Below, one piece after another: positions 1 through 55,700 of a DNA stretch of 64,000 nucleotides. The position numbers and the translations under genes were made by a program. Origin of the DNA: Microthyrium microscopicum (taxonomy: Eukaryota). Position 1 is the stretch's first letter. The number at the start of each line of letters is the position of its first letter. The stretch spans positions 352,991 to 416,990 of the forward strand of contig MU004231.1 of the NCBI GenBank assembly GCA_010405405.1, in the 5' to 3' direction. The notes below the pieces were generated by a model, which was not told where the DNA came from, did no database searches, and saw only the letters and a list, made by a program, of their open reading frames with translations.

Positions 1-2479
1 TAAATATATTTAGATTATATTAAATATAAGTCTATTTTACTTATTATATCTATATATATAATAATTATTATCTTAGTTATTAAATAATTTTAAGTATTTA
101 TTCTATAACCCTAATAATATTTATTATAAATATATACTAGTTCTAGCTATTAATATTACTTAAGTAATAAAGTATATTAGACTTATTTAAGAATTCTAAT
201 TATTTATCTTATTTAAAGAATATTCTTTATTAGCTTTATAGAAGTACTTTAATAGTTTATCTTATTTTATTAATTTAAACGCTATAAGTAGTTTTAGTTC
301 TAATTTCTATTTAATATATCTTAAATTAGTAAATTTATTTTAATTATTCTATATATTTTAAACGAATTAGATATTAAGTCAAGTACTTAGATATAGGACT
401 ACGTATTATAGTAATAAGTAGTTATAGTATTATTAGATAACTTAAATTAATAATAATTTTTTCACGATAGCATAACTACTTTTATATATTACTTATTTAG
501 GTTTAAGGTATACTAAGATACTATAGATGTTATAAAGGCAATATTAAATCTTAATAAGTAGCTTAAGTAATTTAGGTAGCTAGTTATCTCTTAGTAGCGG
601 GTTATAAAATTAGATTTAGTAATTTTCTCCTTCTTAACCTCTATTTTGATGCTAATTTCTATAGGAGTAGTATATATATTAATATTATGTAGGTTAAAAT
701 AGTTAATAATTTCCTTAATATAACGCGCGTAGTATAATAGGATTCCTTTGCTTAATTATTTAATAGATATACTAAGATACGATACGTACTCTCCTAGATT
801 TTTTATCTTAAATTCTAATAATAATATCTTCTTCGTTACCTTAATAAGGTATAAGTATTATGAAGTAATTTTAAGGTTGTCTATATATACTTCTATAATA
901 ACGTTGTATTTAGAGATAAAGATAGATTAGTTAAATTTACTAACTCTCTAGTTCTTTAATATTAGGAAGTCGTATAGTCGTTTATACTACTATCTTAGTA
1001 ATTATTTTAGTCTATAGAGTGCTTTATTTAATCTTAGTATATTACTATCTTTAAATTCGTACTTAAATCTTTATAGGAGTTTAATATATACTTCCTTATC
1101 TAAGTCTTTGTTAAGAAATGCTGTTTTAATATCTATAAGGTAATAGTAATATCTAAAAAATATATATAGCGTAAAGTATAGTTTATAAGATAATCCTTTT
1201 ATTATACTTGTATAGGTTTCCTTAAAGTCTTTGTCTTAAATCTATTCAAAGCCTTAGGCGTACTATTAGGCTTTATATCGTAAGATTTAGTTCTTCTTAC
1301 TAAGTTTATGTTTAAGTACTTATTTTGTTAATAGGATCTTTCTACCCTTAGGTACCTTAGCCTTATAAATAATAGTCTAGATGTAGTTTTTTAGAAGGTT
1401 TTAGAACTTAGCTTTCATTACTCTAAGCTACTAGTTAGCTTCTTATAACTTTATTACTATAGAATAAGTACGTAGGCATAGTTAAAGGGTAAACTCTAGA
1501 GAATTAATTAGTAATAACGTTAGAGTTATTACTATCTTTGTCTTCTTTTGCTAGACGTTTGTAACTTTAATATTAAGTGGAATATAATGATAGAGGCTAG
1601 AGTAATGATTCTGTATAGCGTTACTTAATATTATAGTATTATTATTATATATCTAAATAAATTATAAGTTAAGAGTATATTCTAGTACTAGAATTAGGAA
1701 TAGTTCTACCTCTTCTATAATAACTCTAATCTAAATTAGTTAATTAAGATTTTGTATAGATTATAAGTTAATAACTAAGGCAACTTAGTTAATACTAAGA
1801 TTGCTTACGTTTATTATATTAAGTTCCTTAGTAAAGAAGGAGCTTATTAAGTCTTATTAACGTTATAAGGCTATAATGGCTTATAGTTCTTATAATGTTA
1901 GTAGGCGAGTTATAGGATTATTAAGTACTTCTATAGAATTTATAATAGCAAATAGTCTATAGAGTAAGCTCTCTAAGCTTATAGGAATAATCTTATAACT
2001 AGATATAAAAGCTTTGCATAGTAATTATTTAGCGTTAGTAGGAGAGTACTAATAAGGATTTTCCTTAGACGTTTCTTTATTATCTAACGTTTAGGTAGCA
2101 TTGTTAATAGGTAAGTTTGCTTCTATAATATTATTATCTACGTTACTAAGGCTTTTCTCCTCGCTCTTAATAAGATCTATATAAAAGAAACTAATAGAGT
2201 TTACCTCTAGTTCTAGTTCTTCTAAGTCTAAACTAGGTTTAGTATAACTATCTATAGTTCTCTTAAGTCTTACGAAGATCTATATTTATTATCTATTTCC
2301 TAGTTCTAGCTCTACGTTTTCCCTCTCTTATGTAGGACGTTTTAGGCGTATCCCTTTTGTAGTAAAAAGGTAAGCTTTAAGATTAGTTATTTCTTAATCT
2401 TAAGAAGTAGCGACTTTGTTAGATATTACCTTTTTCTAATTCTAGAATTAATATATTACTTTTCCTTTAGGAATTTAAA

Positions 2480-3130
2480 TTATATATATCCTATATTCTA
2501 TAGTACCTTCTTTATTAGACTCTTTGTAGCCTAGGCAAAGACTAAGTTCGTTATAGAGTCTTACGTTACTAAAATAGTTCTTATTATAATAATTATACTT
2601 ATTATAAGTAAAGTTTTCTAGCGTTAGTAGGAATAAGTCTCTATCTTTTATTATTTCTAAGAAGTTAATAGGAGCGTATAAAATATCTACTTATAGTCGT
2701 TAACGTGTATTAGATAGGTCTATATAAATATAGTATTATAATAGCGTAGTTAAGTTGCTTACTACTTTAATATAAGTAGAGTAGGGTAGTTTTCTATTAT
2801 ATTACCTATGCTCCTTCTTATAACTTAAGTATTTAGGAAAGCCTTCTATATAATAATTTATAGTAGTATTATTTTTAATATAGTAAGGATAAAGTCTTTT
2901 ACTATTATATATTAATAATTAGTATAAGTACCTTCTATAGCTCTTATAGATACTAGAAACCTTAGTATAAAACTATAAATTGCGTTAGGAAAGATTTTTA
3001 GTATGTATTTATTTCTCTTATAATTAATATATTCTTTTTTATTTAATATAACTTAAGTATAGAATATTTATATTAGTGTCTAGGTTATTTTAATTATAAT
3101 AAGAACTTTTATTAAAGTAAGGACTATATT
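2480..3130 (-). other. Four tandem Zn(II)2Cys6-like motifs inside the copia Pol (RIP-degraded)
   Basis: TAT/TAC codons (RIP of TGT/TGC) are spaced C-x2-C-x6-C-x12-C-x2-C-x6-C in unit 1, with CD..PC linkers in the others (CDGKRPC, CDRKLPCSTC). The frame is the same as integrase and RT. Confidence 0.75.
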
Positions 3131-6100
3131 TTTTAGCTTTATCTTATCTATAAGGTTAAATAGCTAATGTCTCTTTATAATAAATTGTTACTACTATAGG
3201 TTAAGGTTATATAGGTTACTTAGTTTTAGTCTTTAGTAATTTAAAAAATTTAGAAGTTTTATTTTAATCTTCTAGCGAGAGGCTATCTTTTTAGTATAGT
3301 AGTTAATTTGTTTTATTCTTACTTTCGTATAAGGCTTGTTACTTAATAATATCTATAAGCTTACGTCCTATAGTATTAGGTATATTGCCTAAGGTTCCTA
3401 CGTTATTAATGTATACTTTAGTAACGCTTTTTACTATCTTAGTCTTAGGGTTAAATACCTACTAAGTATTCTTATTCTTACGCTCTATTAGGTACCTAAA
3501 CTAGCCTTAACTAGTTAGTATCTTTAAGGCTATAGTACGTATTTCTTTTAAGATAGTAATATACGTATAGCTTTCTTAGATATATTCTTTAGCGAAGTTA
3601 GATTATACTTAAAATAGTACTTTCTAAGGGGTAACGTATTTACTCTTAATACTACGAGTAGGTGCTTAGTTTTTAAGCTATACTATATAGTGAAATGCTT
3701 TATATTATAGATTCCTAAGGAGATTAGTACTCTTAAGTACTTCGTAGCTTAATTTAAGTACTTTAGTAAGTTCGTTAGGTAGGTTGTAATCTAAGATTAT
3801 AGCTTATGCTCTCTCTCTTATAGTATAGTGTTACTACTTACTAAGGCTAACCTAATAGTAAGCGTATAGGGCTAATAGTTCTATTATGATCTCTTTATTA
3901 TCTATCTAATTCCTAAGTCTAGTATCTATAGTAAACTAGTTATTAAATTAGTAACTCTAGATTATAATGCTATAGGTTTATTTAATTTTCTTATATAGTT
4001 ATTTAAAGGTATAAATTAATATTTTCTTCTACTTTAGTAGCATAATCTATATATATTAAGTAGTAGAGTTAGTAAAGAAGATAAATAAGTTTATACTATT
4101 ATACTTAACTAGGTTATTATATAGGCTCTAAATATCTATAGAGACTAGATTACTAGAACGATATTATATTTAAGGATTAAAGTTTTATAGGACGCTATTA
4201 GTAGCTTTTAATAATGCGTATAGTAAGTATACTATTCTAGCCTTAGATTTTATTTCCTTATCTATTAAAGAAAAACTAACTAACTTTTTAAGTAGTTTTT
4301 ATATATTCTCCTAGCCTAGGTGTCCTAGCTGCTAATACTATAGCTATATCTTGTCTATAAGGTTAATAGAGTTAATATCTTTAGTATTAGTAGCATTAAC
4401 CTTAGTAGTTATTTTGTTAAGTTTAAGTATAAAAAGGCTATTTTAGAGGTGCGTAATTATAAAGAGTTCCCTATCTTAGGTTCTAAGTATTATGCTGTTT
4501 AGTCCCTATTCTTTATATATGCCTATATTTTTAGTAAGTTTAAATAGGAATAGGATGTTTAAACGTAGGTCCTTAGCTAAGTATATATTACTAATATAGA
4601 GATTTAGAGCCTTATTAAGTTCTTTAATTAGGGTAATAAAGAGCTTAATGGCGCTATGTCCTATAATAGAGATACTCTTCTTATTTATTACTATTCTAGC
4701 TACGTCTCCTATATTATTAAGTTTTCAATTATAAACTACTTAGAATAGTTAGTTATATAAGTATTTGCGCTAGAGTCTATAATCTACTAGTCGTAATTAT
4801 AAAAGTAACTACTTCTTATTATTAGTATAGACTTTATTACTTTTATAAGTTTCTTATAAGTAACTACGATTTAGTTATAAGGAATACATTAATAGAAAGA
4901 GTAAATATTACTCTATCTACTTTATTAATAGAGGTAATAAGTTTTGCTATACCTACTTTGTTTTAGTATTATGCGTTTCTATACCTATAAGTTTCTACTT
5001 TATAAGTACTCTATATATATTAGTAAAAAGAATACTATAAGGGCTACTATAATAATTAAACTTAGTAATTAAGTATACGCGTAGATAAGTATAGAGTAGA
5101 ATACTACTAGACCTAGAGCTTACTAGCTAGTAATTATATTTTAGCCTTACTTCTAGTTTGCGTTAACTTGCTTATTAATAAATAGTTAATATAATTTGTC
5201 TTAATACTTAAAGGAAAGATATCTATTTAAGAGCGTAGTAACTATCTAACCTAGTATCTATTAGTTAGGTTCCTTCTTCTACTAAGTAAAGTAGTAAATA
5301 AGGTATTAGACATAGTAGAGATAGGTAAGGTATAAGTAGGATATAAATTCTTAGTAGAGTTTTCTTAAATATTTAGTAAATAGTTAGCTAGTTCTCTTAG
5401 CGCGTTTATAAGCTTCATAGTAAGGACTATAGGTGCTATAGTAGAAGTTTAGATAGTTATAAATAGCGTAGTTGTTATTATAAACTATAAAATTCTCTAT
5501 ATAACCTAGGTCTTCTTTATAGAATTTTATTATTACTATAATTTTGTATAGTTATTTTAGGCCCTTATTTTTAAATTCCTTATCTTTCTTATTTACGTTT
5601 ATTATATTTGCCTTTTTTAAGGTTTAGCGACCTAGTAGTAGCTTCTTCTCTAAGTGTACTAGTTAGTAATTTAGAGTTTTATAACTCTAAGCTATCTTGT
5701 ATTCCTTTATTATATACTTAGGCTCCTTATTAGTATTCTTTTGCTTTCTCTTAGAGTAGTTAGACTTTAGGTCTATAATAGAAAGATTATTTTTTTAAGA
5801 GAGATTATTATTTATGTTAGTATTATTAATGGTTTTTATACCTTACTTATAGAGGCATAACTTATATGTTAGTAGTTAGCTTATTAGTTCCTTAAGGTTG
5901 TATTCTATAAATCTAGGAATATTAAATAAAAAGTAGTATTAGTTAATAAATGCATTATAGGTAAGTAATAAGCTTAGTCCTTAGACTATTTTGCTAATTA
6001 ATTGTTTATTATTATACGTACTACTTGCTTCTATAATATTTAGGTAGTATATTTCTAAATTGTTTAAGTATTCCTAAACTTATAAGTATAAAGTAAGTAT

Positions 6101-6747
6101 TAGACTCTCTAGTTTGTTTAAGGTAATATTCTTTACTTAGGAATCCTATATAGTATATTAATTAATAAGCTAGGTTTAAGTATCTCTAGGCTTAGTAAAG
6201 GAGCTAAGGTTTCTAATAATTATATTAGATACTAATTTAAGAAGGAGTATTATTGCTTTTCTTAATCTCTTATTAAACCGCTTTTACTTTCCTAAGTCTA
6301 GTTTGTATTCTTAGAGTTAGATTTAGTATAATTTAGATTTAGTAGCTAATGCTACTTCGTTTTACTTACTATATTCTACTAGATCTAACGCCTAGAGACT
6401 AGTAATAATCTTAGGATTAGTATCTTCCTTAACTTTTTGTAATGTAGCTTTAGCTCTTAGTAGGCTAACTTTTTAGTTCTTATAAGGGATTAGTTTTAGA
6501 GGGTTTAAAGCTTAAAAGCGAGGTTAGATAGGATAAGTAAGGATAGGTTCTATTCCTTTATAGAATAACTAGACACTAGAAGTAATAGTAGCAATTTTAA
6601 AGGTACGTCTCTAGCTAATAAAGTTATCTTAACCTTTAAGCTTTACCTTTAAGCTACTATTTTTAGTATTTACCTTAAGAGGCATTATAAGAGTATAATT
6701 AGGTATCGTTTACTTTCTAAATTATTAACTAAGATTATAGTTTAGAG

Positions 6748-6761
6748 CTAGGCTTATAACT
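6748..6761 (-). promoter_or_regulatory. Primer-binding site of the copia element (GGTTATGAGCCCAG type, RIP-mutated)
   Basis: The minus strand reads AGTTATAAGCCTAG immediately after the LTR end. It differs from the copia-type GGTTATG(A/G)GCCCAG PBS only by transitions. Confidence 0.75.
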
Positions 6762-6932
6762 TATTAAATAGCTAAATAAAAGAATAAATTTTTATTTAAT
6801 TATTTTTGTCTAAAAAAGAAAAAGAGAAGGAATCTAAGTCTATAAGTATAACTAATATTTCTATTTACTTCTACCCCTCTTATTGTTTGTCTCTCATCTG
6901 TGTCTACCCGTGTAGAGGTGAATACTTCAACA
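6762..6932 (-). repeat. 5' LTR of the copia element (~171 bp)
   Basis: The minus strand starts TGTTGAA at 6932 and ends TTTAATA (RIP of TTCAACA) at 6762, directly before the PBS. Confidence 0.85.
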
Positions 6933-9040: not shown

Positions 9041-10778
9041 CTAATTATCTTCTAGAACCTCGCCAATAGCTTCACCAACCTTGACCTTCTGCCCCTTTTC
9101 TATTTTCCAATTCCAACCTCCTTTGCGTCTGTCACCGAAGCCTTCATCGAAACTCGTGATGCGTCGGCTCTTTGGGGCTTCAAAGACAAGCACAATTGTA
9201 CTGCCTAGTTGAAAACCGCCCATCTCCTCGCCACGACGAAGTGCATGGCCGCCGAGTAGCTCGCTGGCGTTTTCGTAGGTGGCTTCTGCAAATCCGGAAT
9301 ACTGCTCTCCCCGAGCTGCGGCCTGCTCTGCGGCGCGATCTGCGGCGGTGTCTGTTGTAAGACTGTTCGTCCGCAATTCCTTGTCGAAGTTGACGACAAT
9401 ACTACCGACGTTGGTAGCACCAACAGGTGTATATGAAAAGAAGCCATGTCGCCATCTACCCAGGAGTACAACACGCTCGTTCAAGGTGAACAGTCCAGGA
9501 AGAGTTCGCTGCAGATATGGAGATACACTGTAAAGTTCGCCTGCGAAATGACGTCGCCGTTCAACTACCCATGGCACAGGACTGTGAAACCGATGATAGT
9601 CTCCAGGCGCTAGATATATGACGCAGTAGTAAAGCTGCGTGGGAGCAGCGGGTTTGGGTTGACCTGAAAAGCCGGACCACCAAGATGGTTCAGAGAGTGC
9701 CAAATCAGCTCTGACTTCTGCAATGGATCCTGATTTTGCTTTCATAGACTGATCAACAGTGGCCCCCTTCTTGGACGACTTTGCCGATGAATGGAGCTTG
9801 TCTCCGAGTAAATCTGGAAGGCGATAGCTTATTCCGTTGACTTGTGCAAATTCCTCATGTGATCGAATCGCCTCTTCATCTCCAGAAAGAGAAGATCTTC
9901 GACTGTCAGTTGGAGTTGCGGTACCCGAAGAGACTGGCGTTGGCTTTTCAGAACCTAACAAAGCATCCAAGCTATAGGTCATGCCCTTGACTTGCTCGAC
10001 TTCTCCGTTATCAATAGTGCCAAATTGAATAACTTTGCCATCTGCGGGTGAGACTACGCTGTTTGGATTCGAGTCAATTGGTCGCACGCCTGGTTTGAGC
10101 GTTCGATAGAAGAAAGCCGCGAGATTGGGAAATACATGGAGATCTGGTTCCTCTACTTCGGAAAGACTGGACGGTTAGCTTGATTAGATATGCATGATGT
10201 CTTCTTCAACTTACTTGACACCGAAGATGTACGAATATAATTTAAAGCCTGGAACCCGCAAATAATATGGGATAGTGAGCTCGTTGAATCGTCCCCAAAG
10301 CCGTGACAGTGCTTTTAATGGTAGAGTTGACATAATTTGAACCTGCCTAAGCAGAATTAGCATGAGGTTCCTGGGTGAAAGGTAATTGGACTGACCATGG
10401 CCCACTAGGGCGCACTCTCTTCCGCTTCTTGGGTTTTTTGGGATCTTCGTCCTCTCCATTGTTATACACGCCACCATTGTCTTCCTCAGCCTCGCGCCTT
10501 GCCTTTTCATTTTCCGTGACCACTTTGTATAATTGCAGAGCTCCAAGAAAGCCAATTCCAGCAGCGGCTGGTATTGCATACCATTCTACTCGAGTGTTGT
10601 TCCATGCTTCTCGTAACCTTGCGCCAAAGGCCTCTTTGCGGTGGGTCTGCTTGTTCTTTAGGACTCTTCGAGACGCAGAGAACGCGCGCGTTTGTAATGA
10701 GGTAGGACGCGAGCGAAAGTTTATTGAGCGATAAGCCGAGACTCGAGGTATGGTAATACCTCGAGCAGTTGGTGGCAT
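9041..10778 (-). CDS. PSD1: Mitochondrial phosphatidylserine decarboxylase proenzyme
   Basis: Arg-rich presequence, LPLKALSRLWG, SPADG, YLAPGDYHRFHSP, LFTLNERV, VGATNVGSI, and the LGST autocleavage motif; two introns. Confidence 0.95.
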
Positions 10779-18112: not shown

Positions 18113-19366
18113 CTAGGACTTGATCTTCTTCTTGCTCTTCGACTTTGAACTTTTGCCTTTGGATGTGACCTTTTCAGCTTTCGAAACATTCGCTTCTGGG
18201 GCCTCAACTTTCGCAACTTCCTTCTCAGATACAGGGGCTTCTATTGCCCGTGGTTCTTCAGCCTTATCCACGTCCTCAACAGCACCTCTCGCTGCTTTCT
18301 CTGGAACATCTCCCACCAGCTTCAACTCAGGCATGTCAAACTCATACCCCATCTTTTCCATCAATGCCTTCTTCTTCTCTCGGCGCACCTGTTCTCTTGT
18401 AATTCGACTCTCCCACAATTTGCGCTCACGCGGCATTTTAAGACCGCGCGCCTGGATAGCATTCCACGGAATTTTCTTGAACCGCTTATTTGCGCCCTTC
18501 CACAAGTTTTCGTGTATCTGCTCTTGCGGGATTCGGCGAACCTGAAGAATGTTGCCAAAGAGTAAGTATTTGTTCATCGTTCTGGCGACAATGTCGGCAA
18601 CTTCGCCAGATTCAAATTCTATGAAAGCATAGTGTTTTGGTGCACCAGTGCGGCGATTTCGTGCTAAGCGGAGCTGAGTGACGGTGCCGAACTGGGAGAA
18701 GTAAGCGCGCATTTGATGCTCGTAGAAACCGTGGGGAAGATGGCTAATATTGTTAGCTTGAGAAATTGACAGCGATGATAGGGTACAAACCCAATGTAAA
18801 GCGTGCCCGTATCTTCTTGATGTCCATCTTTCTTCTTTTCCAAGGCCTTCTTGTCTGCATCTGTAGCGGCTGGCACAGCTGGTAATTTGTCCAGTGCTAT
18901 GCCGTCATCTTCCTCTTCAGATTCCGAGTCACTTGACTCGCCGTATGTTGCTAGTAGCTTTTCGACATCGGCAGCGTCGAGGTCTTCACTGTCGTCCTCT
19001 GAGGCCTGCTCAACCACTTTTATGGCTTTCTTTGATCGCTTCGGTTTGGATATCGAGGTTGGTACTGCGTCCTTATCAGGCGTTTCTTCAGTAGCATCGA
19101 GGAGATCTGCAGCTCGCTTTCGGGCTGGTTTGGCAGGCGAAGGCGCTGTAGCTAATGTGGAGGTCTTGGCTTCTGTTGCCTTTGGCTTTTTGGCCTTGAG
19201 TTCCGGCTCAGTAGCTTTTTTGGCTTTTACTGGCTTGTCAAGTTTGGCTTTTTTGGATTTTTTGGCGTCTACATCAGCACCTAGTTCAATTAGCTTCGTA
19301 GCAAACAGGGTGGGAGTAGAGTATATTCATACCCTTGCGCTTGGTAGCAGGATTTGTAACAGCCAT
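18113..19366 (-). CDS. NOP15: Nucleolar RRM protein for 60S biogenesis (Nop15/NIFK family)
   Basis: Lys-rich and acidic N-terminus, TLYIG / HLPHGFYEHQMRAYFSQFG, RNRRTGAPKHYAFIEF, MNKYLLFGNIL, LWKGANKRFKKIPW; two introns. Confidence 0.9.
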
Positions 19367-23402: not shown

Positions 23403-26400
23403 CTAATGAGTTGGCATTTGTCCCATTGTACCTCCTGTTTTTGTTAAGGATGTGTCAGCTTTGCTAGGATCAAATCAGGATATCGCATTTGAATCGCGCG
23501 GTCAGGGCGGGAAAGAATTCCGCCATTCCCTCGAAACACTAAGAGCAACATGTTAACACAAACGAAGCGGGCAAGTGGATGAAGGTCTCGTGAAGACGAT
23601 CCATGCACTGATTGCCCACCGAGGAATCACCAGACTGGCAAAGCAGACTGATTGGACATGTTTTGGTGGTGATGATCATAACCGTTACTTAAGTGAAAAG
23701 AGGTCTCACCAGATTGTCGTTTGATTTGATCCCGAGCCCAGCGAGCGACCTCAATCGTTTGATCACGGAAATCACGATTAGCACGGATTTCACGGGCCAT
23801 AGCAGTGAGCCATTCAGCACGGAAGAGCTCAGCATAATCTCCGTTGGGAAATGCTCGAGAAACATCACTGTGGTTCATTAGCACCTCCAGAAAAACAAAA
23901 TACCGAGGAAGAAACTTACCCGACAACACCCATGCAAGAACGCAGCAAAGCCTCGGAACGAGTGTGCTCCTGGAAAATCGCATGGATCAGCTGGAAGATA
24001 GCTTCCAAGTGAGGGACTAGCAGTGCAGTTTTGTCACCAGCCATCATAGCAATAATGATTCCATCCCAAGCATCCATTATGCCTTCTCGGAGAGACGTGA
24101 CATAATCATGAAGTTCAAATGGGTCGTTTGGACCTGCGACGACTTGTCCTGCTTGGCGGAGAATTGTAGAAACTACATTAAGATAAGTCTCGAATGCCGG
24201 TCCAATTGCCTGGGCAATGTCTCCGAATGACTGGAGGATGGCCGGTTTGAAGTTGTGGCTGAGAACATTGCTTTGCAGAGTGGTGAGTAGACGATTCATC
24301 AATTCATCACACCATGGCTGAACCTTGTCCCCAAGACTTCGAACGATGTCGCTAACAAGTCCGATTGACATTGAGCACAAGCTAATTTCCTCTGTGTTCT
24401 CAAGACCCTTGTAAAGATATGGCGCAAATGTCTCCATGTAGGGTAAGAAATCAGCCTCGAGAGAGTTGGCGAGGGCACCAACAGCCGCAAACACAGTATC
24501 AGGTACTGCAGATTTTGGTGGAACATTGTTGAGCAATTGTAACAAGACGGTCATGATGCGATCGGATTGAGGCTTGATTTCGACCTCAAGGCGTTGAATG
24601 ATGGCAACAACAACGCTAGTCAAGCTAACCTGCATCTCCTCGAGTGTCATCTTATCCTCGATGCTAACGACTTGTGCTTGAAGAGGAATGGTTTTCTCTA
24701 GGCGCTCAAGGATGACATTTGAGAGTTCTGCAACAACACGCAGGCTATCAATGGCGGAATTGGTGACGAAAGAGTTGAGGACTTCGTATGCAGCAGTTCG
24801 GAGTTGATTGTCAGCATCTTGACGATCAGTAACAGCCAACAGATGTGTAACGCTTGCTTGGAAATGAGCGGTGAGAGGATTGGATTGACAGCCTGGTTCT
24901 CCGGCAAATTGATCAGCAAGGTTCATCAATGCCCAACAGCAAGAAGCGGCAATCTTGGGTTGCGCTGCAAGTCCAGTGAACAGCGAAGCAATTAGTGGTT
25001 GCAAATGTTGAGCAGGCTCGATGGAGTGATGGTTAAACTCGCAGATTCGTCCAAGAGCATATGCGACAGAATCCATGACATGAACGACAGGATCATTCAT
25101 CATTCCAATGAGGACTGGAAGGGCCGTTTGAATGATAGGCGTGAGCACGTTAGGCTCAGGACCATCAACAATACCGCCAAAGGCTGACACGGCAGCGTCA
25201 CGAAAATGCCAATCCTCGGAACGAAGATGTTTCTCAACAAAGCTCAAGACTGGAGTCATGATTGGAGTTCCGACACATGAAGCCCAGAGTTGCAAGCACT
25301 GATATGCAGCACGAGAAATGTTGTACTCGTCGTCTGCAGCATCTTCATCTTGTCGAGTCAAAAGCTCAAGGATAACAGGAATGACTTCAGGTGTAGCGAT
25401 TTTGGCGAAACTGAAATATTCTCGTAGTTCTGCGGAACCTTCGGCGGATGCCTGTCATGGAGTTAGTTTTGGTGCGTATGAGACATTGAAGTGTCTTACC
25501 TGAGTATTTTCATCTTCAATCTCCATTTCTTGATCGCAGATTGTACACCAAAACTCAACAGCCAATTTGCCAACATCTTCATCTTCGCTCTTCATGCCCT
25601 GAATAGTCAGACCAAACAAGGCCTTTTCCACGTAGAATTTCATCTTTTCGTAGTATAGACCCATGATTCGGTTGAGACACCCCCACGCTCCTTGCTGAAT
25701 TCGACTGTCGCCCGCTTGAGTTGCTTCACAGATGACTTGCATGATGTAATTTCGCTCGCCTTCATTCTCAAAGTTGGAGCGAACAAACTCTAGCGAATCA
25801 CTGAGAGCCGTAATGGCCGCATTACGAACATTTTCGTTGGGTTCTTCTTTACGAGCACCCTGAACAACAGCAGTGAGGATGGCGTTGGAATGCTTGGATA
25901 GAGTCTCGCGGAATTCCGCGTCGTTGGTCTCGCAAATAAAGCCTATTGTGTTGAGCGCAGCCTGTTTGAGTTTGCTGTCACCTTTGGCGACACCGTCGAC
26001 AAGATATGTCATCAGTTCCGGCCATTGATCGCGAGGCAACTCAATAGCAGCAATTGAAGCGATAAACTGAGCAGCACCTTGACCAGCGCGAGAATCGGTT
26101 GACGCGAGTGTCTTGATAGACAGGTCCTTGATTTGCGCACGAGCTTCGGGGGTGACGGAGGTAAGCCATTGTGACTGAACTTCTCGTAATCTACCAAAGT
26201 CTTTGTATGTGAAGGAGTTTTTCAGAGCAAGCGCAGCGGCATAGCGGACACTACTAGCAGCTTGTTCGTTCGCGAGCTCAGCAGCGAGAGTGGTTAGGTA
26301 ACCGGCCTAGTCAACGGGTTAGCGAGGCCAACGAAAAAATATGAATGCGCGCAACGTACAAAATCGGTTTGTTGGGCTTGTTTAAGTTGTTCTTCGGCAT

Positions 26401-28674: not shown

Positions 28675-30972
28675 TTATTTGCTTCCTGCTTCTTGAAATC
28701 TCCGAGCAATCTCAAGAGTTTCGGCATCCAGCCGAGTTCCACCAAGGAACGTTATCGAAAATGGAAGCTCTCCCTGGTCGCTCTCATTCCCAGAGAGTTC
28801 CGATACTTTATATGTCCCAGCTGGAGTTGCCACGGCGCAGAGATCCAAAATATTGCCAAAATGAGTAAATTCCTGTTTTTGGTAAGCTTCGATTCAAGAA
28901 CGATGAGACAATTACTTACGCCCAAAATACTGTTCTTCTTAATCGGATCAGCGAGCACCTGTTCCGTTTTCCAGTGCGTTGGAGTGGTTGGAACAATCAC
29001 TACATCCACGCCTTCACCACTATATCCAAACACATTCTCAGCCTCGCGCGTATACAGCGCCTTAGCTTGTATATCCCGATACGCCTGCACCGCCGTACTA
29101 TTCCTCGCCACAACAGCCTCAAACAACTGCAATATAACCGGATGCAAATTCTGCCTATTCTTCTCCAAAAAGTCATCCGGTAACGACGCTAGCCGCTCCG
29201 ACACAAATGTACCATCGTACAATAACCGGCCAGCTTTGTCGAATGGCGACCAGTCAATTGGCTTCAACTCACCCCCAATCGCCTGCAATGCCGCCACCGC
29301 TTCGTAGAACTTACTGCGATAGATCGGCGAGCACACACTCAGTGCTTCAGGCGGCGGTATACCAAACTTGAATTTGCTCGCTGCAGCTCCAATACTGTTG
29401 ACGTGGCGCTCAAAGCCCATGGGCCATTTCGCATAGCGGTCACGCGCATCGTATGATTCACATAGGGACCATACTTTGCGTGCGTCGCTTACAGTCTTGG
29501 CGATGATGGCGATGCAGTCGAGACTCAGGCAGGCGGGTGTTAGACCAACGGTGCTGAGTAGGCCGCGGGTGGGCTTGTAGCCGACGACACCGTTGAAGCC
29601 ACTCGGTACGCGGCCCGACCCGGCGGTGTCGGTCGCTATGCTGAAAGTACATAGATTTGCGCCGACGGTTACCGCGTTGCCGGAACTGGAGCCGCCGGAG
29701 ATGTAGTCAGGGTTGAAGACGGAGTGGGGCATACCATAGGGTGAGCGGCAGCCAGTCAGACCGGTGGCGAGTTGGTCGAGATTTGTCTTGCCGATTAGCA
29801 GTGCGCCGTGGGAAATGCAGCTGTCGTAGACTGGCGAGGAGGTTGTCGCGATGAAGGAGAGTGGTGGGCAGGCGGTGGTGGTTGGGAGGCCGGCGATGTC
29901 GAGACTGTCTTTGATGCTGAAGGGTACGCCGAAGAGAGCGGGTAGTTTCGCTTTGTTGGGGTATGCGGCTGCGAGGGCTTCGGCGGCGGCGAGAGCTTGG
30001 TCTTTGGGGACTAGGTGGATCCAGACGCCGGTGTTGGATTTCTCGTACGCGTCGATTGTTTTATACAGCGAGGAGATTACGGCGACGGGGGAGAGGCCGT
30101 TTTTGTAGGCTTCTTGCAGGGCTGGGATTCGAAGGTCGCCGTCCCAGACTGTTGGGGTCAGGGGTGGAGATAGACTGTCGGTTGCTGCTTTTAGGGGATT
30201 GGTATATGGTTCGAAGGCATCAATAAGCGGCTGCAGATTGGCGACGAATCCGAAGAGACCTTGGGACCAGTGGATCATGTCCAGGGATGAACTCTTGAAT
30301 TCGGCATTGTACCCAGCAGTTGCTTCTTCAATACCACCTGGAAAAAGTCAGCTTGAAGATTCTTAATCTGGATGGACAAAACTTACAGCATTCAAACCCA
30401 CGATCATTGGCTTCTCGGATCGATGTAGCAAAGCAGCACTCAGTAGTCACACCAGAAACCAACAAATGAGTGATGCCATGGGATTTCAGCTTGTGCATGA
30501 TTGCAGTATTCCAGAACGAGCCTTTGCCTGGCTTGTCAATGACGACCTCTCCAGGATAGGGAGCCAACTCGTCAATAATATCGTGGCCGTACTCTCCTCG
30601 CGTCAAGAGGCGTCCCATGGTTGCTTTGTCGCCAATGACAAAACTGTGCTGTGTATTACCAGGCAAAGCTGGCTGGCGTTCGACTTTGGAACTTGGCATA
30701 TCGGAAAGATCAGGAGTATGGCCTTCTCGAGTGTGGAAAATGGTCAAACCAACTGCTCGACAAGCTTCAAGAAGTTTCTTTGTTGGAGCTATTGATTCCT
30801 GGACCATTTTGAGATCTCCGCCTTGGATCTCTCCAAAACCGGTTGGAAGCAGAAAGTCTCTCTGCATATCAATTATGAGAAGAGCAGTCTTCTTTGGCGG
30901 AAAAGAATATGCATATGGCTTTGCATCAATGGTCAATAGCTCTGGGAGCTGTTCAAGCAAAAGGCTTGACAT
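28675..30972 (-). CDS. Fusion of isochorismatase-family cysteine hydrolase (biuret/triuret hydrolase-like) and allophanate hydrolase-like amidase
   Basis: N-domain: IIDMQRDF, HTREGH, DKPGKGSF, GVTTECC (D-K-C triad), REANDRGFEC. After intron ~30339-30385 the frame continues into an amidase-signature domain: GVPFSIKD, GKTNLDQLATGLTGCRSPYG, GGSSSG, TDTAGSGRVP. A second intron lies at ~28873-28919. Confidence 0.85.
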
Positions 30973-31893
30973 GTTGGCTGTTGTTTCGTTCAACACTCTA
31001 ACAATAGGAGAATTATCTTGACCCAAGAAGAGTTTGAAGGTTTCGAGCTGTTCTAAAAGTTAATTGAAAGAGAAGATTTAGAACACAGCAGTCTGGAACC
31101 AAAACAAAGTCATTCGACGTGCAGCATCAAAGAAATTTCTATCAACCAAAAGTATATCCTATCACCCAATCTGGCATGCGAGGCCGCAGCTCTGGCGGCT
31201 TATTCAAATTCAAGAGGCCTTCGGCCACCGGCGGCGCCTACACGACGGCGCGCGCGCAAGATATGGATCAGGGTCAAACTAGGATGCTTATCTCTCCGTT
31301 TTGCGGGGGTGGTCAAAGTGTGCAGCATAGCGATTCTGGGCTTGCAACTATTCCGCTTTGGGCCTCAAGCAAGCCTATTGTAAAGCCAGCATTCGGCCAA
31401 CCACCAACGACCGCTCGTGGCTGGACGTTTCTGGACACTTTTTTATGCTCGTTTAATGCTCAGCTCAGAGTTCTGGCTTTTTGACACTGCAGTGTCGGCA
31501 CGCGACTGTGCAGCCATGCCACCAACCACTGTTGTCCAACCCAGAGAATTGGCATCGATAGCGTGGGGAACTTTCTTTTATTTTCCAGGTCGTTGGTTGG
31601 CCAAATGCACGATAAAGTTCTAGTCCCATAGGGCCGGAGGCGTTCGTGGTCTGGAAAAGGCTGATCTCTATCTTGAAAACACTCGAGATATCCAGCCTTC
31701 TGGGACCGGCGGCGCATTGAAGTGGCCGTTGAAGTGTATATAGCAGACGAAGCGTGTCCCGAATACCAGGTCCGTTTCATAGGTTGTCAGTTCAAGATAT
31801 TTCGACAAGGCTTTGATATTCAGGTCCTAGCTTTTCTTGATACTACCTTGAACAAATCGGCTTCTCTTTCAGGCTCAATCCTTGTTGTTCATC
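30973..31893. promoter_or_regulatory. Divergent promoter between the hydrolase fusion and the NCS1 permease
   Basis: Head-to-head genes. Exact repeat ACCGGCGGCGC at 31227-31237 and 31705-31715, CCG-N5-CGG at 31296-31306, and GATA cores (CTTATC 31287, GATAAA 31611). Confidence 0.5.
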
Positions 31894-33706
31894 ATGTCTA
31901 TACTCTCTCCCAAGAGACAATGGGGAAAGTTGAAGGCCTACGTTGAGCCTCAACTTCATCTCGCTGTACCATTTTCAGCTGGTGCATGGGGTGATGATGC
32001 AAGATGGTCCAACAAAGGTAAGTTGATTCGACTCGTACTTCCAACATCAATACTTACATTTCTTAGATTTGGATCCTATTACACCTGAAAAGCAAACATG
32101 GGGGCCAATCGATTATTGGGCATATTGGTGCTCTGATATGCTTGCACCTCCTCTTGCCTCTACAGTCTCCAGTGTCATGAGTCTCGGCTTCACGGCCAGA
32201 GAGACCATTCCCATCGTCTTCTTTGGCTTTGCCATTTGCAGTTTGGTCATCACAGCTACTGGCAAAATGGGAGCGACCTACAAGGTTCCCTTCCCTGTCA
32301 TTGTTCGATCCATCTTTGGCATGTACGGATCTTTCCCAGCTATCTGCATTCGAGGTATATAACATCTTGTCAAATGTCCGAGATCAGCCTGCTCACTTAA
32401 CATTTAGCTTTCGTTGCCATGATGTGGACCGCTATCCTTTGCGTCCAAGCAGGAAACTACCTTCAAAGAATGATCGAGGCTATCTGGCCAAGCTTCATTC
32501 ACTTTCCCAATCATCTTCCCGCCAATGCCGGTATCGACTCTGCTGGTCTACTATGCTTCTTCCTATACTGGTTCCTCCAAACATTCCTTATGATGATGCC
32601 CATCGAGAAACTCAAGATTCTGTTCTTGGTAAAGGGTGTTATCGTTCCACCAACATTCGTCGCTCTCTTCCTTTGGGCTGTTATCGTCACAAAGGGTGGC
32701 GGACCACTCGTTCAAGGCCACATGAAGATCACAAGCACCTACATGAACACTGCCTATAGCGCGCTGACTGGACTCAACGTCATCATTGGTCTCTTCTCGT
32801 CCATGGCCGTCAACATGCCTGATTTCGGTCGCTTTTCCAGAGACGGATTGAAGGGTCCTCATCAGTTCCTTGCTCTTCCTGTCATTGGAACACTTGGTGC
32901 TTTGACTCCAATCTTCGTCACCTCCGCCCATGAACAAATCTGGGGAACATTCGATTGGTACATGCCCGACATTATCGCCGACTTTGACAGCCGAGCTGCC
33001 AAGTTCTTCGTTTCTGCTTCTTTCATGCTTGCCACCATCGGTAACCAGATTGCTGCTGGATCGTATCCATTCTCCAACGATATCAGTGGATTCGCACCCA
33101 AGTAAGTTTCCTCATATCGTGTTGAAGTGAACATTGGCTAACCTTTCGCCTTCTAGGTATATCAACATCTTCCGCGGTACCCTATTCATGTGTCTTTTCT
33201 GCGTCGTATCCACCCCATGGAACATCATCAAGAACGCAGCCGGCCTACTCGCCTTCCTTTCCGGCTACAGCTGCCTCATGGGTCCACTCGCCGGAGTCAT
33301 GGTCACCGACTACTACATCATCAAGCAGCGCAAGCTCAATGTCTACGAACTCTACAAGTCCCCTGGAATCTACTCCTACGAGCACGGCTTCAACTGGCGC
33401 GCATGGGCAGCATTTTTCTGCGGTGTTGGACCTCTGATGCCCGGATTTGCCAAGTCTATCGCGCCTACGCTGAACGTTGGTGGAGCATGGAAGATCTACT
33501 CTTTTGCCTGGATCTTTGGTTTCTGCATCTCGACGCTTGTCTACTACGTTATTTGCACGTATATCTCTGTTCCTCACGAGAGCATTATTGCGGAGGCGGT
33601 ATATCCTCCTGGAAAGGGCGAGCTTGCTTCGCCGGCTAGTATTCATGGAGAGGTTATTGATGACCTCAAGGAGCCAATTGCCATGACTAAAGAGCAAGAA
33701 GTCTGA
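31894..33706 (+). CDS. NCS1 family nucleobase/allantoin permease (Fur type)
   Basis: RWSNK/DLDP.TPEKQTW, VPFPVIVRSIFGMYGS, NMPDFGRF, YINIFRG, PWN, FLSGYSCLMGP, GFNWRA; many TM segments; three introns. Confidence 0.92.
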
Positions 33707-34960
33707 TTTGGTTGAGACTTTTGCAAGGAATGTTTTATGCGGACATATATCCCCACTGAGCTGTTTGAACTCTTTTTTGTTTGATTTGTTGCTTTATTAG
33801 TTTAGGATACCAACAACATTTGCAATAACTACACATTTTAATCCTCATACAATCGAAATGGTCCTCGTTGTGTCAATAGTGTTTGTTAACTACTGTTGTC
33901 GACGATACCAAGTAGTATTCTATCTATCGCGGCTGTGAGCTGTATACATGCGATAGGTAAGCAAATCAAGACGTGATATACGATTTATTATTTTATAATC
34001 GTAGAAGAAGCCGCAACAATTCATATGGGAGACAGGACGACCGTAGTGTTATGTATGGAAGCTTTGCTATTTCTTGTATGCAATACGAAAAAGTTTCATG
34101 TGGAAAGACACATTTCTTTCACAGCAGAGCTCTTTGAGAAATCTCGGTTCGTAGTTTTCAATCGCACTGGTTTTCCATCCGTTACAGGTCTTCAGTACTT
34201 TTTATGTTCTGTTTGGTCCAACATCAGCCTTATGACTACAATGGACCCCCCTGAGCGCGATCTACCCAATATCATTTTGAAATTGATATGATATACTTTC
34301 TCAGTGCTTCTTACTTCCCAGCCTAGTCTGTGATATTTTACCACTTGGTTTTGTTTGGTCAAATTCAAAAACGCCATGTATGCTACTGGCCCATTTCTAC
34401 TGTGTCCTTATGATATCATCAACATTCTACGTTATCCCTTTTCATCAATTTCCTCCAAGCGTGCTGCCAATACTTCCAAAAATCTTCATGCAGGTGGTCT
34501 CGGAACACTTCCGAGTAGACTTTAGGGACCTCAGGGCCTACGCCGGCCGAGGGCGACTTGCTCTCTCAGCCAATCAGGTGTCTCACAGCTCAGATATCAC
34601 CAACCGTGTTTTGCTTTTTCCATCGGTTCTGCTTCAGCTTTCACGCATCTTCTTACGACAAAAATGATGTAGGTGGAATATATGCTTAAGAGGCCTAGTA
34701 CCTTTTGACTTGATCAATACTCAAACTTGTATATATATCGTTCACATCGTCTTCTTCTTACCCGTCAATAACTCCTGGCTATCATCTCGCCAATCTCCAA
34801 AGAACACTGTCCATGCAGGCAGGCTTTACGCAGGAGAAGCATGCACAGTCCAGCCAGCCCGGTAGTGGGAGCCAACGAGCCGGAAAGGGGATCAACCCAA
34901 ATATCTCACCGATTAGTGTAGGCGTTTATTTACCTAGTCGAAGCGCGCATATCGCTCATC

Positions 34961-37178
34961 ATGGATCCACCATCAAACGCAGTATCATCCCCCGATTCCC
35001 TAGGATACAGTGCCTTTCCTGGAACTCTCAAAACTGCAACAAAACCCCGCCGTCCATGCGATGCTTGCCGAAAACGAAAATCTCGCTGTGAGATTCCAGA
35101 GGGGGAGACTATCTGCGTTTTGTGCCGCTTCCACAACCAGATTTGCCTTTTCAAAGAGAATCCCCAACCACGGAAACGTCGAAAAGTGAGCGAGCCATCG
35201 CCTGGCGAATCCAGCTCAGCAAATGTTGCTAGAAACGGCAGTCTATCAAACGCAACTCCGCTCGATCCGAGTGCAGATGGTACGGCTCCTATGGCTTTTG
35301 GCGAAAGACGAACTCCAACCGCCTACATAAGACAAGAAACTCCCATCGACAACTACGCCAACTTGAAAGGACCGAGCCTATTGAAGAAAACACTTGGTCT
35401 ACAAAGTCATCGACATAGCAAAATACTTGGTTCTACATCAGAGTTCGAGCCATCATTGTTGTCACTACCTGCTTTCGGGACCAAGGAAGAAATCTCAATA
35501 GGACCAGTATCCTTGCGCAAAGTCACTGCCATCGATTGCTTTCAATTGATGTCCGATACTTCCACTGTATCATATGCCGATGAGATCCGTGATCTGGACA
35601 CCATTGAATCAATTGTCGCTCCTCATGGTCGTGAGCTTATACGTCTATATTTTCGCATCGTCCATCCAACATATCCAATTCTTCACAAAAAAGTCTACTT
35701 GGAAAAATATGAACGAACTCACCGGGAGTTTTCTCCTCCATTGTTGGCAGCTGTATACCTTCTAGCAGTTAACTGGTGGTCATATTCTTCAGATCTGGCA
35801 TTGCTCCCAAAACCGGATATTGAGACGCTGGAATCCATTGCGTTACGAACCATGTCATATGTTGTCTCCAGACCAAAGCTTTCCACCATCCAAGCTGGCC
35901 TACTACTGCTCCAGAGGCCTGAAGGAGAATCATGGGCTTTGACCGGAAAACTTGTCGCTCTTGGTCAGGATCTAGGACTTCATCTAGACTGCACCAAGTG
36001 GCGCATACCCGCCTGGGAGAAGGGTCTGCGAAAAAGACTTGCCTGGGGCCTATTCATGCAAGACAAATGGGGCGCCTTGGTACATGGACGCCCTTCACAT
36101 ATTACGTACGATGACTGGCTTGTCAAACACGTCAATGAGACCGATTTTCCTGAACGAGCGGCTGACGAAGATGAGGAAGAAGGGAGCACTGAAGTTGAAA
36201 AGGGGCGAGTTCTGTTCAGTGAGATGATCAAACTTACAGAGATCCTGACAACAGTTCTGTCCCAATTTTATACCCTCCGAGCAGACGAAGAGTTTCGAGC
36301 TCGGGAGCATGAAGGGGGAAGATGGATATTGGAAAAGGCAAAGCCAATTCAACTTGCCTTGAGAGAATGGTTCGCTCAGCTGCCAGAGTCTCTTAGAATG
36401 GAACAGGTGAAAATGAGAAAGCTAAACTCTACAGGTAAGTACATTGGAATTGTGTGCAATTATATGAGCTTACTCGGTTGCAGGCTATCTGTATTTGGCA
36501 TACTACACCACTGAAATTACTCTCCACAGAAGGATTGTCAGAGCCCTCCAGCACGAGAAGGATCTCAGCCTAGTACAGATATGTCGGAACGCCGCCCAGG
36601 CTCGATTATCTTCAGTCACCGAATTTGTTAAAAGTCTGAGGCCTGAGCATCTGCAATCATTCTGGTACTGGGCATCGAAATACTGTTTTGCCATTGTCGG
36701 AACATTCATCAGCTTACTCTGGGCAACATCTTTAAGGCAAGAAGAAGCAGATGCCTACAAGGAAAAATTGGAGGAGTACCGATGGACTCTTAGGCTATCG
36801 AGCAAAAGCGCCGAGATTCTAGATCGAGCAGCTAGCATGCTCGCCACGTCCACTGGAGTCCTAGTGAAGGCTATTCCAGCCAAAAGTGCAGCCGACGACG
36901 ACAATGAATACGAAGGATCAACGCCCGGAGATGCGGAAAGTGAAGACACTGGTGGACGGGACTGGGCTGCTGAAGCCGGTCTTTCTGATGTATCGATGCA
37001 AGCAAGTCCAACAAATTATACAGAGGGCCACTTTGACATGATGTGGCAAGGTTTTAACATTCCACCTGGAGGGTCTACATTTCAAGGAAATGAACAGTTT
37101 ACCCCTGGAACTGGCGAGGATGACAAGTATACCTCGTTTATGAGAGGTGATCCTAGTGATCTGGAGAGATATCATTGA
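34961..37178 (+). CDS. Zn(II)2Cys6 transcription factor with fungal-specific TF domain (Dal81/TamA-like)
   Basis: RRPCDACRKRKSRC...CVLCRFHNQIC; YFRIVHPTYPILHK; RPKLSTIQAGLLLLQR; RKRLAWGLFMQDKW; LRPEHLQSFWY; one intron ~36435-36484. Confidence 0.9.
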
Positions 37179-51010: not shown

Positions 51011-52325
51011 GACGGCATCCGTCGATGCAATTGACGATCTCGGTTAGGGACCTGACCGCCCAGACGTTTACGATCTGCTCTGTTATGTTCTCCGCCTTGA
51101 GCCGCATAACGCAACGCAATGCACGATGGGAAAATACCCTTAAAAAACAGCTTATCGTGCGTTAGTAATGTCGGTGAAGATTAGAAGAGGGTTCGGAAAG
51201 TGGGCCATGAAAGTTCAAGGGTCCTGCGACCCACTGCTATGGTCTGGGGAGGCCTCTTTTGCGGTTTGTGGTTAGATTTTGCGACTGAACGGCGAAATGC
51301 GAGAACTGGTGTAGAGTAGTCCGCGTGCAATTGGATAAGAGTGCTGATCAACACTGACAAAGTTTCTCGCGGATTGTTTTAGTTGCCTTGCGTTCCCGAT
51401 AGGTTTCCACCGGCCGGACCGAATGGGCGGAGTTACAAGATAATTTTGAAAGTTTTGATCGACATACGATGCTGCTAAAAGTACTCGCTAGAATGATATC
51501 TGTTAGTGCTATCGACGGTGGTCATGCTCTGCAGGATTGTCCACTCTGGATCGTTACGGAGGAATACTCCGCCATGCTGACTCTCCAATCGCTATGATAT
51601 CGTTTGACGGGTGGCGTATCTGGCAGTTTGAAGCAAGTCGGTGTGGCAAAAAATGATGTTCAAGGGTGCATGCGGATAATGAGAACCAATGTTATCTCAG
51701 CCAATCAGATCACGCCAAGTCTCCACTAGCTGCGACGTAGTCACGTCTAAGGATAACTTAGAAAATTTTATAGCGACTTACTTTGCAATTTTGCTATTTT
51801 TATAAATAACTTAATACTATTATAATTATAGCCCTATAGCTTAAATTTAGTACTATTTAATCCTTATAGTTAGAAATTAGCTTTCTAATAAATCTATTTT
51901 TATTTAGGATTAACGTAAAACTATAATATTTAACTATTCCTCCTAATATACCTAAAAACGTCTAACGTATTTATATTTTAGTAAGCGTACCTTTAACTAT
52001 TAATTACTAAATAATCGCTATAATATATATAATTTTATATATATAAATATACTTAAAACTATTATCTATTTTAATCTAGTACGTTATTTTTAGGTTATTA
52101 TTATTAATAGTAGTATATACTCTATTTTTATTCTACTAACTACTATATTATTACCTACCTAGTTAATTATTTCCTTATTATAGGATATATATATAAACTA
52201 TTAAAGGATTATACTTAATAGATATTAAGAGTTTTCTAGTACTATATATTAATTAAAGTCTATAAGACGTTAGTAAAATCTTTAATAAGCCTAATAAAGT
52301 TGCTACTTCTTATAAGATCTAGATA

Positions 52326-52381
52326 ATATTAGAAGATCTATTAAGATATTAGAAGATCTATTAAGATATTAGAAGATCTAT
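52326..52381 (+). repeat. 20-bp tandem repeat, about 3 copies (ATATTAGAAGATCTATTAAG)
   Basis: Directly visible; lies upstream of the helicase remnant. Confidence 0.85.
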
Positions 52382-52472
52382 AGTAATATTTAATTATTCC
52401 ATCTATGCCTTACTACTAATCTATTATACTTATTATATATTCTAAGTTAAAACTTTTTTAACTAAGTTAGTA

Positions 52473-55400: not shown

Positions 55401-55700
55401 ATAGTTAATACTATAATTCTTAAGAATTCTAAGCTAAGTAGTCCTATATCTCTACTTACTAGCAAAACTATACGTTATAGTACTCTTATAGAGTTACCTA
55501 TTAGCTTAACCTAGGCTAGAGCTAGTAAGTAAGTAAAAGATACTTTAAGTATACTACCTAGTTATAAAAGAGCTACTTAGTTACTAAGTATCGCTAGTAT
55601 TAAATAAGTAGAGAAGAGAGCTTAATAGGGAACTATTAGGTTAAGCTATATCTAGAAAACGCATATTAGGCATTTATTAATTCTTATAGAAAAGGAAAAG
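52473..55700 (+). pseudogene. RecQ-like superfamily 2 helicase, RIP-inactivated
   Basis: De-RIPed motifs: LLIAKTGFGKSL (52854-52880), IIPL, IDECHL (53160-53177), WFGCTSTL, RTSVDRPNL, IVVATTCLGLG, LWQRAGRGAR (~54105-54134), CCNRCNP Zn site (~54668-54688). Start and end are approximate. Confidence 0.85.

Follow-up and report, generated by a model that had tools for sequence, protein, structure and literature searches.

A decayed Ty1/copia retrotransposon of Microthyrium microscopicum with a predicted tandem array of Zn2Cys6-like units between integrase and reverse transcriptase

The 64,000-nucleotide stretch of Microthyrium microscopicum DNA analysed here (the window; contig MU004231.1 of assembly GCA_010405405.1, forward-strand positions 352,991 to 416,990) opens in a Ty1/copia retrotransposon that occupies positions 1 to ~6880 on the minus strand. 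Its 5′ boundary is approximate, and the last part of RNase H and the 3′ long terminal repeat (LTR) lie outside the window start. The element is a dead copy, heavily altered by repeat-induced point mutation (RIP): the G+C content is 25% across the first ~6.9 kb versus 42-57% in the gene-rich middle of the window, and the RIP indices TpA/ApT and (CpA+TpG)/(ApC+GpT) are 1.75 and 0.18 at 1-6880, as compared with 0.69 and 1.34 at 7001-52000. Since the intact relatives described below extend ~260 residues past the reverse transcriptase domain RVT_2, the 3′ end of the element is expected beyond the window start. No LTR pair for the element was found in the window, no second copy of it was detected within the 64 kb, and no tRNA genes were found in the whole window. 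The primer-binding site (PBS) motif of the fungal Copia clade FunCo1, written with RIP-degenerate letters, gave 27 matches versus 23 expected, i.e. was at chance level.

Translation revealed a sole frame with recognisable copia Pol remnants, which runs on the minus strand with codons counted from 6998 and is interrupted by 125 stops in 1600 codons. It preserves a WHxRLGH-like string near 4340, an integrase core, an SH3-like end and a reverse transcriptase (RT) with RYKA at 1277. The frame was scanned with Pfam as a literal translation, with stops read as X. This placed the RT at 657..1358 (RVT_2, PF07727; 111 bits, E = 9.5e-32), and no match to rve was obtained on the RIPed Pol translation. 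Local phmmer alignment to the integrases of 16 out of 16 relatives (54-108 bits) located the integrase, with its HHCC finger, core and SH3-like end, at 3393..4379. Integrase upstream of RT in one frame, together with RVT_2, is the Ty1/copia (Pseudoviridae) order. Between the integrase, whose match ends at 3393, and RVT_2, which starts at 1358, there is a linker of ~2 kb, in good agreement with the initial annotation of this DNA, which had remarked on the unusual length of this segment. The distal linker and RT N-terminal extension (1359..2525, minus strand) are in the same frame as integrase and RT, are weakly similar to two of the relatives (P0050 and P0045; relatives are designated here by P numbers) and are reached by RIP-aware alignment with two others, P0016 and P0017.

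The codon counts of the Pol frame are extreme: the 1600 codons include no TGT, three TGC and no TGG, alongside 93 TAT, 48 TAC, 81 TAA and 42 TAG. With TGT, TGC and TGG near zero and the four TA-initial codons so numerous, RIP has evidently removed almost every TpG. The zinc finger of the integrase serves as an internal control for the conversion of Cys to Tyr by this process. Its C-x2-C (4218..4229, minus strand) is Cys at both columns in 16/16 relatives and now reads TAC-x2-TAC, with TAC at 4229 and 4220. Since both invariant HHCC cysteines are TAC in the window and the codon counts are this extreme, we conclude that the Cys-to-Tyr conversion is real, and that RIP has turned nearly all TGY Cys codons of the element into TAY Tyr codons.

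Reading the Pol frame codon by codon for Tyr and Cys, we found four binuclear-cluster skeletons in the linker, starting at 3128, 2939, 2831 and 2606, all on the minus strand and in the frame of the WHxRLGH string (4340) and the RT motif YKA (1277). Unit 1 (3027..3128) comprises Tyr codons at 3128, 3119, 3098, 3059, 3050 and 3029, i.e. C-x2-C-x6-C-x12-C-x2-C-x6-C. Unit 2 (2853..2939) comprises Tyr codons at 2939, 2930, 2909, 2891, 2882 and 2855 (spacers x2, x6, x5, x2 and x8). Unit 3 (2772..2831) has Tyr codons at 2831, 2822, 2801, 2783 and 2774 (x2, x6, x5 and x2), reads as C-LS-C-KKEHR.-C-[N<-D]RKLP-C-ST-C and resembles the unit at 1624 of P0017. Unit 4 (2526..2606) combines Tyr codons at 2606, 2597, 2576 and 2528 with an intact TGC at 2537-2535 (x2, x6, x12 and x2). 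All six positions are present in units 1 and 2, and five in each of units 3 and 4. The initial annotation had proposed all four units from the letters alone, as well as the origin of their Tyr codons from Cys by RIP. Its coordinates for units 1, 3 and 4, including those of the surviving TGC, hold as given; unit 2 is likewise present, with the canonical start at 2939 replacing one at 2948 that, together with a first spacer of x9, was three codons off. The RIP origin agrees with the HHCC control, with the codon counts and with the Cys6 units that relatives carry at the same place.

Behind unit 3 there is a Tyr-Tyr at 2735/2732, which is beyond the canonical distance of a sixth position. It opens a Tyr-Tyr-Ile-Tyr-Ile-Asp string (window 2735-2715) that may be a remnant of a conserved C-x-Y-x-D...G...Y tail, a predicted beta-hairpin, which stands behind the last unit in the arrays of many relatives.

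The five-position pattern [YC]x2[YC]x6[YC]x5-12[YC]x2[YC] starts four times in the Pol frame, each time within 3128-2606. As controls we used 11 frames of the two RIPed blocks of the window (~35,660 codons), which are equally RIPed DNA with Tyr at ~9-10%, as in the Pol frame; here the pattern starts seven times, 0-1 per frame. The expectation for the 217-codon span of the array is ~0.04 matches (Poisson P of at least four, ~1e-7), and the clustering of the four skeletons is far beyond chance. A six-position Tyr pattern is also seen on the opposite strand (+ frame 1, at 2870); its non-Cys positions score like controls, and it is taken as chance.

The residues between the Tyr codons were assessed independently of the Cys columns. 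Position-specific scores were derived from 98 units of relatives, each window codon was given its best RIP-compatible ancestor, and the Cys columns were omitted. The N-terminal block (A) scores 19.0, 15.3, 18.5 and 15.1 in units 1-4, as compared with a maximum of 13.3 among 57 control Tyr-x2-Tyr-x6-Tyr occurrences. For the C-terminal block (B) the scores are 13.3, 12.9, 13.2 and 4.4, with the 95th percentile of 456 controls at 10.6; three of the four units are within the top 2% of these nulls. A free RIP-aware profile scan that includes the Cys columns gave 34.0, 32.3, 32.2 and 29.3 at the unit starts against a maximum of 29.4 over 35,473 control positions, and found no fifth unit. The hallmark residues are those expected of a RIPed family member. 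The residue after the third Cys is Asn in three of the four window units, the RIP product of the Asp found in 189/367 units of the family; before the fourth Cys the window has Leu, Leu, Pro and Leu, Leu being the RIP product of the Pro found in 229/367. When the whole linker was aligned locally, in a RIP-aware manner, with its counterparts in four relatives, the score exceeded all 12 shuffles in each case (z = 4.0, 4.9, 18.3 and 8.3), which, given the ad hoc scoring and few shuffles, is supporting evidence only. With P0013 and P0015 this alignment stops at the last unit of the window.

Intact relatives were collected by an exhaustive phmmer search with window 402-4001 as the query, and the best 150 representatives were analysed. 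The top relatives are copia Pols of 1900-2470 residues in which RT starts near residue 1400-2000, and the long integrase-RT linker is therefore a trait of the lineage. Strict Cys units are present in 27 of these best 150 representatives, one to six in each, all of them upstream of RT in the integrase-RT linker. A second search used P0016 as the query; 120 matches were listed, among which 85 fungal-type proteins were examined. At least one strict unit was found in 77/85 of the fungal-type relatives among the matches listed (range 1-7), the commonest number being four (34 proteins), followed by five (19), and the eight proteins lacking strict units include P0028, whose units have altered spacing. 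Altogether, 367 strict five-Cys units were recorded in 97/227 proteins, with a sixth Cys at x6-8 in 297/367. The order of Pfam domains in the 24 relatives scanned is gag, Pol_BBD, gag_pre-integrs, rve, SH3_retrovirus, then Zn_clus, then RVT_2, so that a search for rve, Zn_clus and RVT_2 in one protein, suggested at the outset, did find them, in that order. The relatives include proteins of Cercospora beticola, Aureobasidium melanogenum, Zymoseptoria tritici, Pseudogymnoascus spp., Penicillium italicum and P. roqueforti, which we take to represent Dothideomycetes, Leotiomycetes and Eurotiomycetes. A word-indexed protein search with the whole RIPed Pol returned 11 distant, mostly plant copia matches that cover RT only; the linker region of P0024 retrieved P0024 plus one other protein only, and the ESM Atlas gave no usable match for the array of a relative.

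Several lines of evidence assign the units of the relatives to the Zn2Cys6 family. Pfam Zn_clus (PF00172), which has a gathering cut-off of 21 bits, reaches at least this value in 10/32 scanned relatives: in 7/24 of a first set (P0024, 57.0 bits; P0016, 40.2; P0018, 23.6; P0017, 23.4; P0022, 22.1; P0045, 22.0; P0025, 21.3) and in 3/8 of a second (P0228, 30.9; P0200, 25.6; P0204, 21.4). P0013 and P0015 have a match at E<=0.01 below the cut-off. Of the domains that the initial annotation had looked to a Pfam scan to recover, RVT_2 was thus found on the window, and Zn_clus was recovered in these relatives; neither Zn_clus nor rve matched the window translation. Precomputed annotations flag Zn_clus in only 16 rows of the P0016 match list, where its co-occurrence with PF07727 is visible; the units are so divergent that routine annotation overlooks most of them. 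A profile built from 13 units of relatives gave 23 matches in the PDB at E<=1, all of them Zn2Cys6 DNA-binding domains, led by RSC30 (3e-7) and followed by Pho7, PUT3, RSC3, HAP1, Cep3, LAC9, LEU3, GAL4 and PPR1. An AlphaFold model of a relative's unit, made with the 13-unit alignment (predicted local distance difference test score 73), has a beta-hairpin behind the sixth Cys and two short helices, one at each CxxC motif (8-12 and 24-28). When this model was used for a Foldseek search of the PDB, the top 24 matches were all Zn2Cys6 domains, with a probability of at most 0.94 and a best root-mean-square deviation of 1.4-2.7 Å over ~40 columns. The cores of 95% of 362 units carry a net positive charge, and the stretch of 150 residues that precedes the array is on average acidic. 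No Fungal_trans domain was found in the array-bearing copia Pols scanned by Pfam.

In a quick maximum-likelihood tree of 119 RT segments, all 25 rows with at least two units and both one-unit rows fall into one group of 47 rows. The rows inside this group that were scored as having no unit, P0028, P0030 and P0050, carry variant or partial units, and the other 23 rows without units lie outside it. Together with the unit number of 1-7, this fits the initial proposal that the lineage captured and multiplied a transcription factor DNA-binding domain. The best RT identity of the window is 37%, to the array-bearing P0017. The window copy is assigned to the lineage more by the array itself than by the RT tree. 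We also compared conservation along the proteins of a 13-member subfamily. Mean pairwise identity is 0.75-0.82 in the integrase, 0.07-0.17 just past the SH3 end, 0.31-0.51 in the array, 0-0.18 behind it and 0.7-0.9 in RT. Since identity is higher in the array than in both linker flanks, the array is a constrained island in a hypervariable linker. Other modules were detected by Pfam in the linkers of relatives, next to the Zn2Cys6 units: two C2H2 fingers in P0187 (1077-1131), C2H2 and C2HC in P0204 (918-969), zf-C2HC_2 in P0169 (1062-1084), and three to four repeats of the helix-turn-helix (HTH) domains HTH_23/HTH_38 in P0023 (~585-780). The integrase-RT linker looks like a hot spot for the acquisition of DNA-binding modules.

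The remainder of the window is made up of a gene-rich block with ordinary fungal genes (9041-48807) between two RIPed blocks. Its genes encode, on the minus strand, a phosphatidylserine decarboxylase (9041-10174), an RRM protein (18113-18904), importin beta (23916-26306), an amidase (28752-30347) and an isochorismatase (30328-31059), and, on the plus strand, a purine/cytosine permease fragment (32401-33105) and a NAD nucleotidase-like C-terminal domain (40350-40988). A host open reading frame with Fungal_trans (92 bits) lies in this un-RIPed block at 34922-36514 on the plus strand; it probably represents a normal zinc-cluster transcription factor gene without connection to the element. The second AT-rich, strongly RIPed block, at 52001-64000, has a G+C fraction of 0.24 and RIP indices of 1.75 (TpA/ApT) and 0.12 ((CpA+TpG)/(ApC+GpT)). 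At the DNA level it does not resemble the copia element, and none of its six frames, translated with X for stops, gave a Pfam match. The RIP-degenerate FunCo1 PBS motif is matched exactly ~220 bp inside its start (52224-52234, plus strand), which may mean nothing given that the motif is at chance level overall.

Taken together, we consider it close to certain that the window contains a dead, RIPed copy of a Pezizomycotina Ty1/copia lineage whose Gag-Pol carries a tandem array of Gal4-type Zn2Cys6 domains between the SH3-like integrase end and RT, with four modules in this copy. The integrase C-terminus is the seat of the targeting determinants of Ty1, Ty5 and the chromoviruses, and we propose that the array provides integrase-tethered DNA binding that targets integration, a role to which we give even chances. 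In Ty1, the protease cleavage site is just upstream of RT. If processing is similar here, the array would be retained on the C-terminus of the mature integrase. Each basic module would bind DNA as a monomeric reader, as AlcR does, and the modules, as a string, could hold the intasome at composite target sites, probably of CGG type, and thereby bias the integration of complementary DNA (cDNA). Units gained or lost, and C2H2, C2HC or HTH modules such as relatives have added, would then retune the target. As a whole, identity and targeting mechanism combined, we favour this explanation by somewhat better than even odds.

A number of observations weigh against this reading in one or another of its parts. 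No sixth position is present at x6-8 in units 3 and 4, where the next Tyr is at x12-13 and x10, respectively, and the second half of unit 4 is not distinctive (block B, 4.4). Zn_clus has no match in the literal Pol translation of the window, in which only RVT_2 is found; this is expected because the Cys codons now read Tyr. Plain phmmer found no significant similarity between the window linker and the 150 relatives; the best match, to P0050 (E = 0.0094), lies in the distal linker and not in the array. Even among relatives, Zn_clus at E<=0.01 is confined to a minority (9/24 and 3/8, with 15/24 giving no match). The Foldseek E-values, 0.13-3, fall short of significance for a domain this small, and the positions that contact bases in Gal4 are Lys or Arg in only 28-44% of units per position. 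In the RT tree, the array group of 47 rows has an SH-like approximate likelihood ratio test (SH-aLRT) value of 90 and is not starred, and the window RT joins a polytomy next to it by a long branch of odd composition.

Might the Tyr pattern be a product of chance in Tyr-rich RIPed DNA, or of Tyr derived from His/Tyr, with no array ever present in this copy? Tyr makes up ~9% in every frame of the RIPed blocks, seven isolated five-position matches do occur in the 11 control frames, and CAY to TAY changes give Tyr as well. Such an origin is nevertheless scarcely conceivable: four matches fall within 217 codons of a single coding frame versus the ~0.04 expected, the non-Cys block A scores above all controls, the HHCC control holds, relatives have Cys at the same place, and the RIP-aware alignment of the whole linker beats all 12 shuffles per relative (z = 4.0-18.3). 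We rejected it on the clustering, the profile fit, the HHCC control and the Cys of the relatives. A one-off capture of a host transcription factor, or a nested insertion peculiar to this copy, would be compatible with the window itself, which offers no second copy of the element for comparison. It too has a negligible probability, since the segment shares the frame of integrase and RT and the same architecture recurs in 77/85 relatives from several fungal classes; the initial annotation had allowed that other copies might lack the segment, which is not what the relatives show. With the array in frame and shared in this way, capture or insertion in this copy alone was likewise rejected.

The two remaining alternatives accept the array and differ in its function. 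It may bind the element's own DNA, at the LTR ends of the cDNA or at the LTR promoter, and so act in intasome assembly or self-regulation and not in target choice. The evidence for basic, conserved Zn2Cys6 units fits this equally well, and the LTRs could be natural targets, as the available part of a preprint describes frequent binding sites of host zinc-cluster factors in the LTRs of the copia element Ty5 in yeast (10.1101/2025.04.25.647736). A factor that is embedded in a polyprotein, and made late and in cis, would however be an awkward promoter regulator, and the wide variation in unit number and type among relatives is a better fit to retargeting than to recognition of fixed own ends; we regard binding to own DNA as rather unlikely, though the stronger of the two. 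A slightly less probable alternative is that the array is a zinc-stabilised basic module that does not read sequence and serves as an RNA/cDNA chaperone, in nuclear import or as a tether to host proteins. The integrase C-termini of Ty1 and Ty5 function by protein contacts and a nuclear localisation signal, Lys/Arg conservation at the Gal4 base-contact positions is modest, and the unit cores are simply very basic, all of which would suit such a role. On the other side, 23/23 PDB matches are DNA-binding Zn2Cys6 domains, and classical DNA-binding modules (C2H2 and HTH) have been added to the same linker in relatives. Returning to target choice, the fullest version of our proposal is a natural 'polydactyl' Zn2Cys6 integrase array, present in a widespread copia lineage of filamentous fungi, that would read composite sites and direct integration, its specificity evolving by gain, loss and swap of modules, including C2H2, C2HC and HTH. 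We put this forward tentatively, as an idea from sequence comparison with a chance of about one in three, rather than as our expectation.

In the full-text literature we found no description of Zn2Cys6 domains in retrotransposon Pol; subscription journals, Repbase reports and domain-architecture databases are outside the scope of this search. The available parts of PMC3248453, PMC5445492 and 10.1101/2025.04.25.647736 (on Ty5 and centromeres) describe none. The site choice of LTR retrotransposons is known for few models only, in which it operates via host-protein tethers or chromodomains. If the array does read sequence and direct integration, it would be the first targeting array of this kind in the integrase of an LTR retrotransposon, and the Gal4-type domain would for the first time be seen in tandem use. 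An integrase that itself bears a series of sequence-reading domains would solve site choice in a different way and be a natural precedent for engineered targeted integrases. The Gal4-type domain, regarded as a dimeric reader that occurs once per protein, would prove usable in tandem, which raises the question of modular recognition codes. For annotation, many fungal 'Zn2Cys6 proteins' may be retrotransposon Pols, and RIPed repeats remain readable once Tyr is taken as former Cys.

Among the closest known systems are the fungal Copia clades FunCo1 and fungal GalEa (Donnart et al. 2017, PMC5445492), which are likewise Pezizomycotina copia elements and are compared here by description only. The accessible part of that article reports them as widespread in Dothideomycetes, Eurotiomycetes, Leotiomycetes and Sordariomycetes, and in it the gag zinc finger is the only zinc or DNA-binding feature we found mentioned. 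The window RT has KARxVA/YVDD-like motifs and not the KSRLVI/QTDD that the same source gives for GalEa. The array can further be compared with the chromoviruses of the Ty3/gypsy superfamily (MAGGY, Tf1-like and Tcn1), which likewise have an accessory chromatin- or DNA-reading module at the C-terminal region of integrase, inherited lineage-wide. The chromodomain of chromoviruses functions in integration targeting. The two cases differ in that chromoviruses belong to the gypsy superfamily and their chromodomain reads histone marks, whereas the lineage described here is copia, with integrase upstream of RT, and has Zn2Cys6 units, 1-7 of them in tandem. The insertion of chromodomains is mentioned in the available part of a survey of fungal LTR elements (PMC3248453). 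Similarly to our lineage, Ty1 and Ty5, of the same superfamily, have their determinants in the same region of Pol, where the integrase C-terminus, upstream of RT, is long and variable. These determinants are short peptides that bind the host proteins AC40 and Sir4, in contrast to the predicted folded zinc domains of a DNA-binding family for which we propose direct DNA readout; the Ty5-Sir4 interaction is cited in the accessible part of 10.1101/2025.04.25.647736. With Gal4-type factors (Gal4, Ppr1, Put3, Hap1, Leu3, Pho7, RSC3/30, Cep3 and the monomeric AlcR), the units share the Cys6 skeleton, the Asp after the third Cys, the Pro before the fourth, the basic first helix, and profile and fold matches. 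Host Zn2Cys6 factors have, as a rule, one N-terminal cluster, a dimerisation coil and often Fungal_trans. The copia arrays differ from them in having 1-7 tandem clusters inside a retrotransposon polyprotein without those partner domains, many of the units being below the Pfam cut-off.

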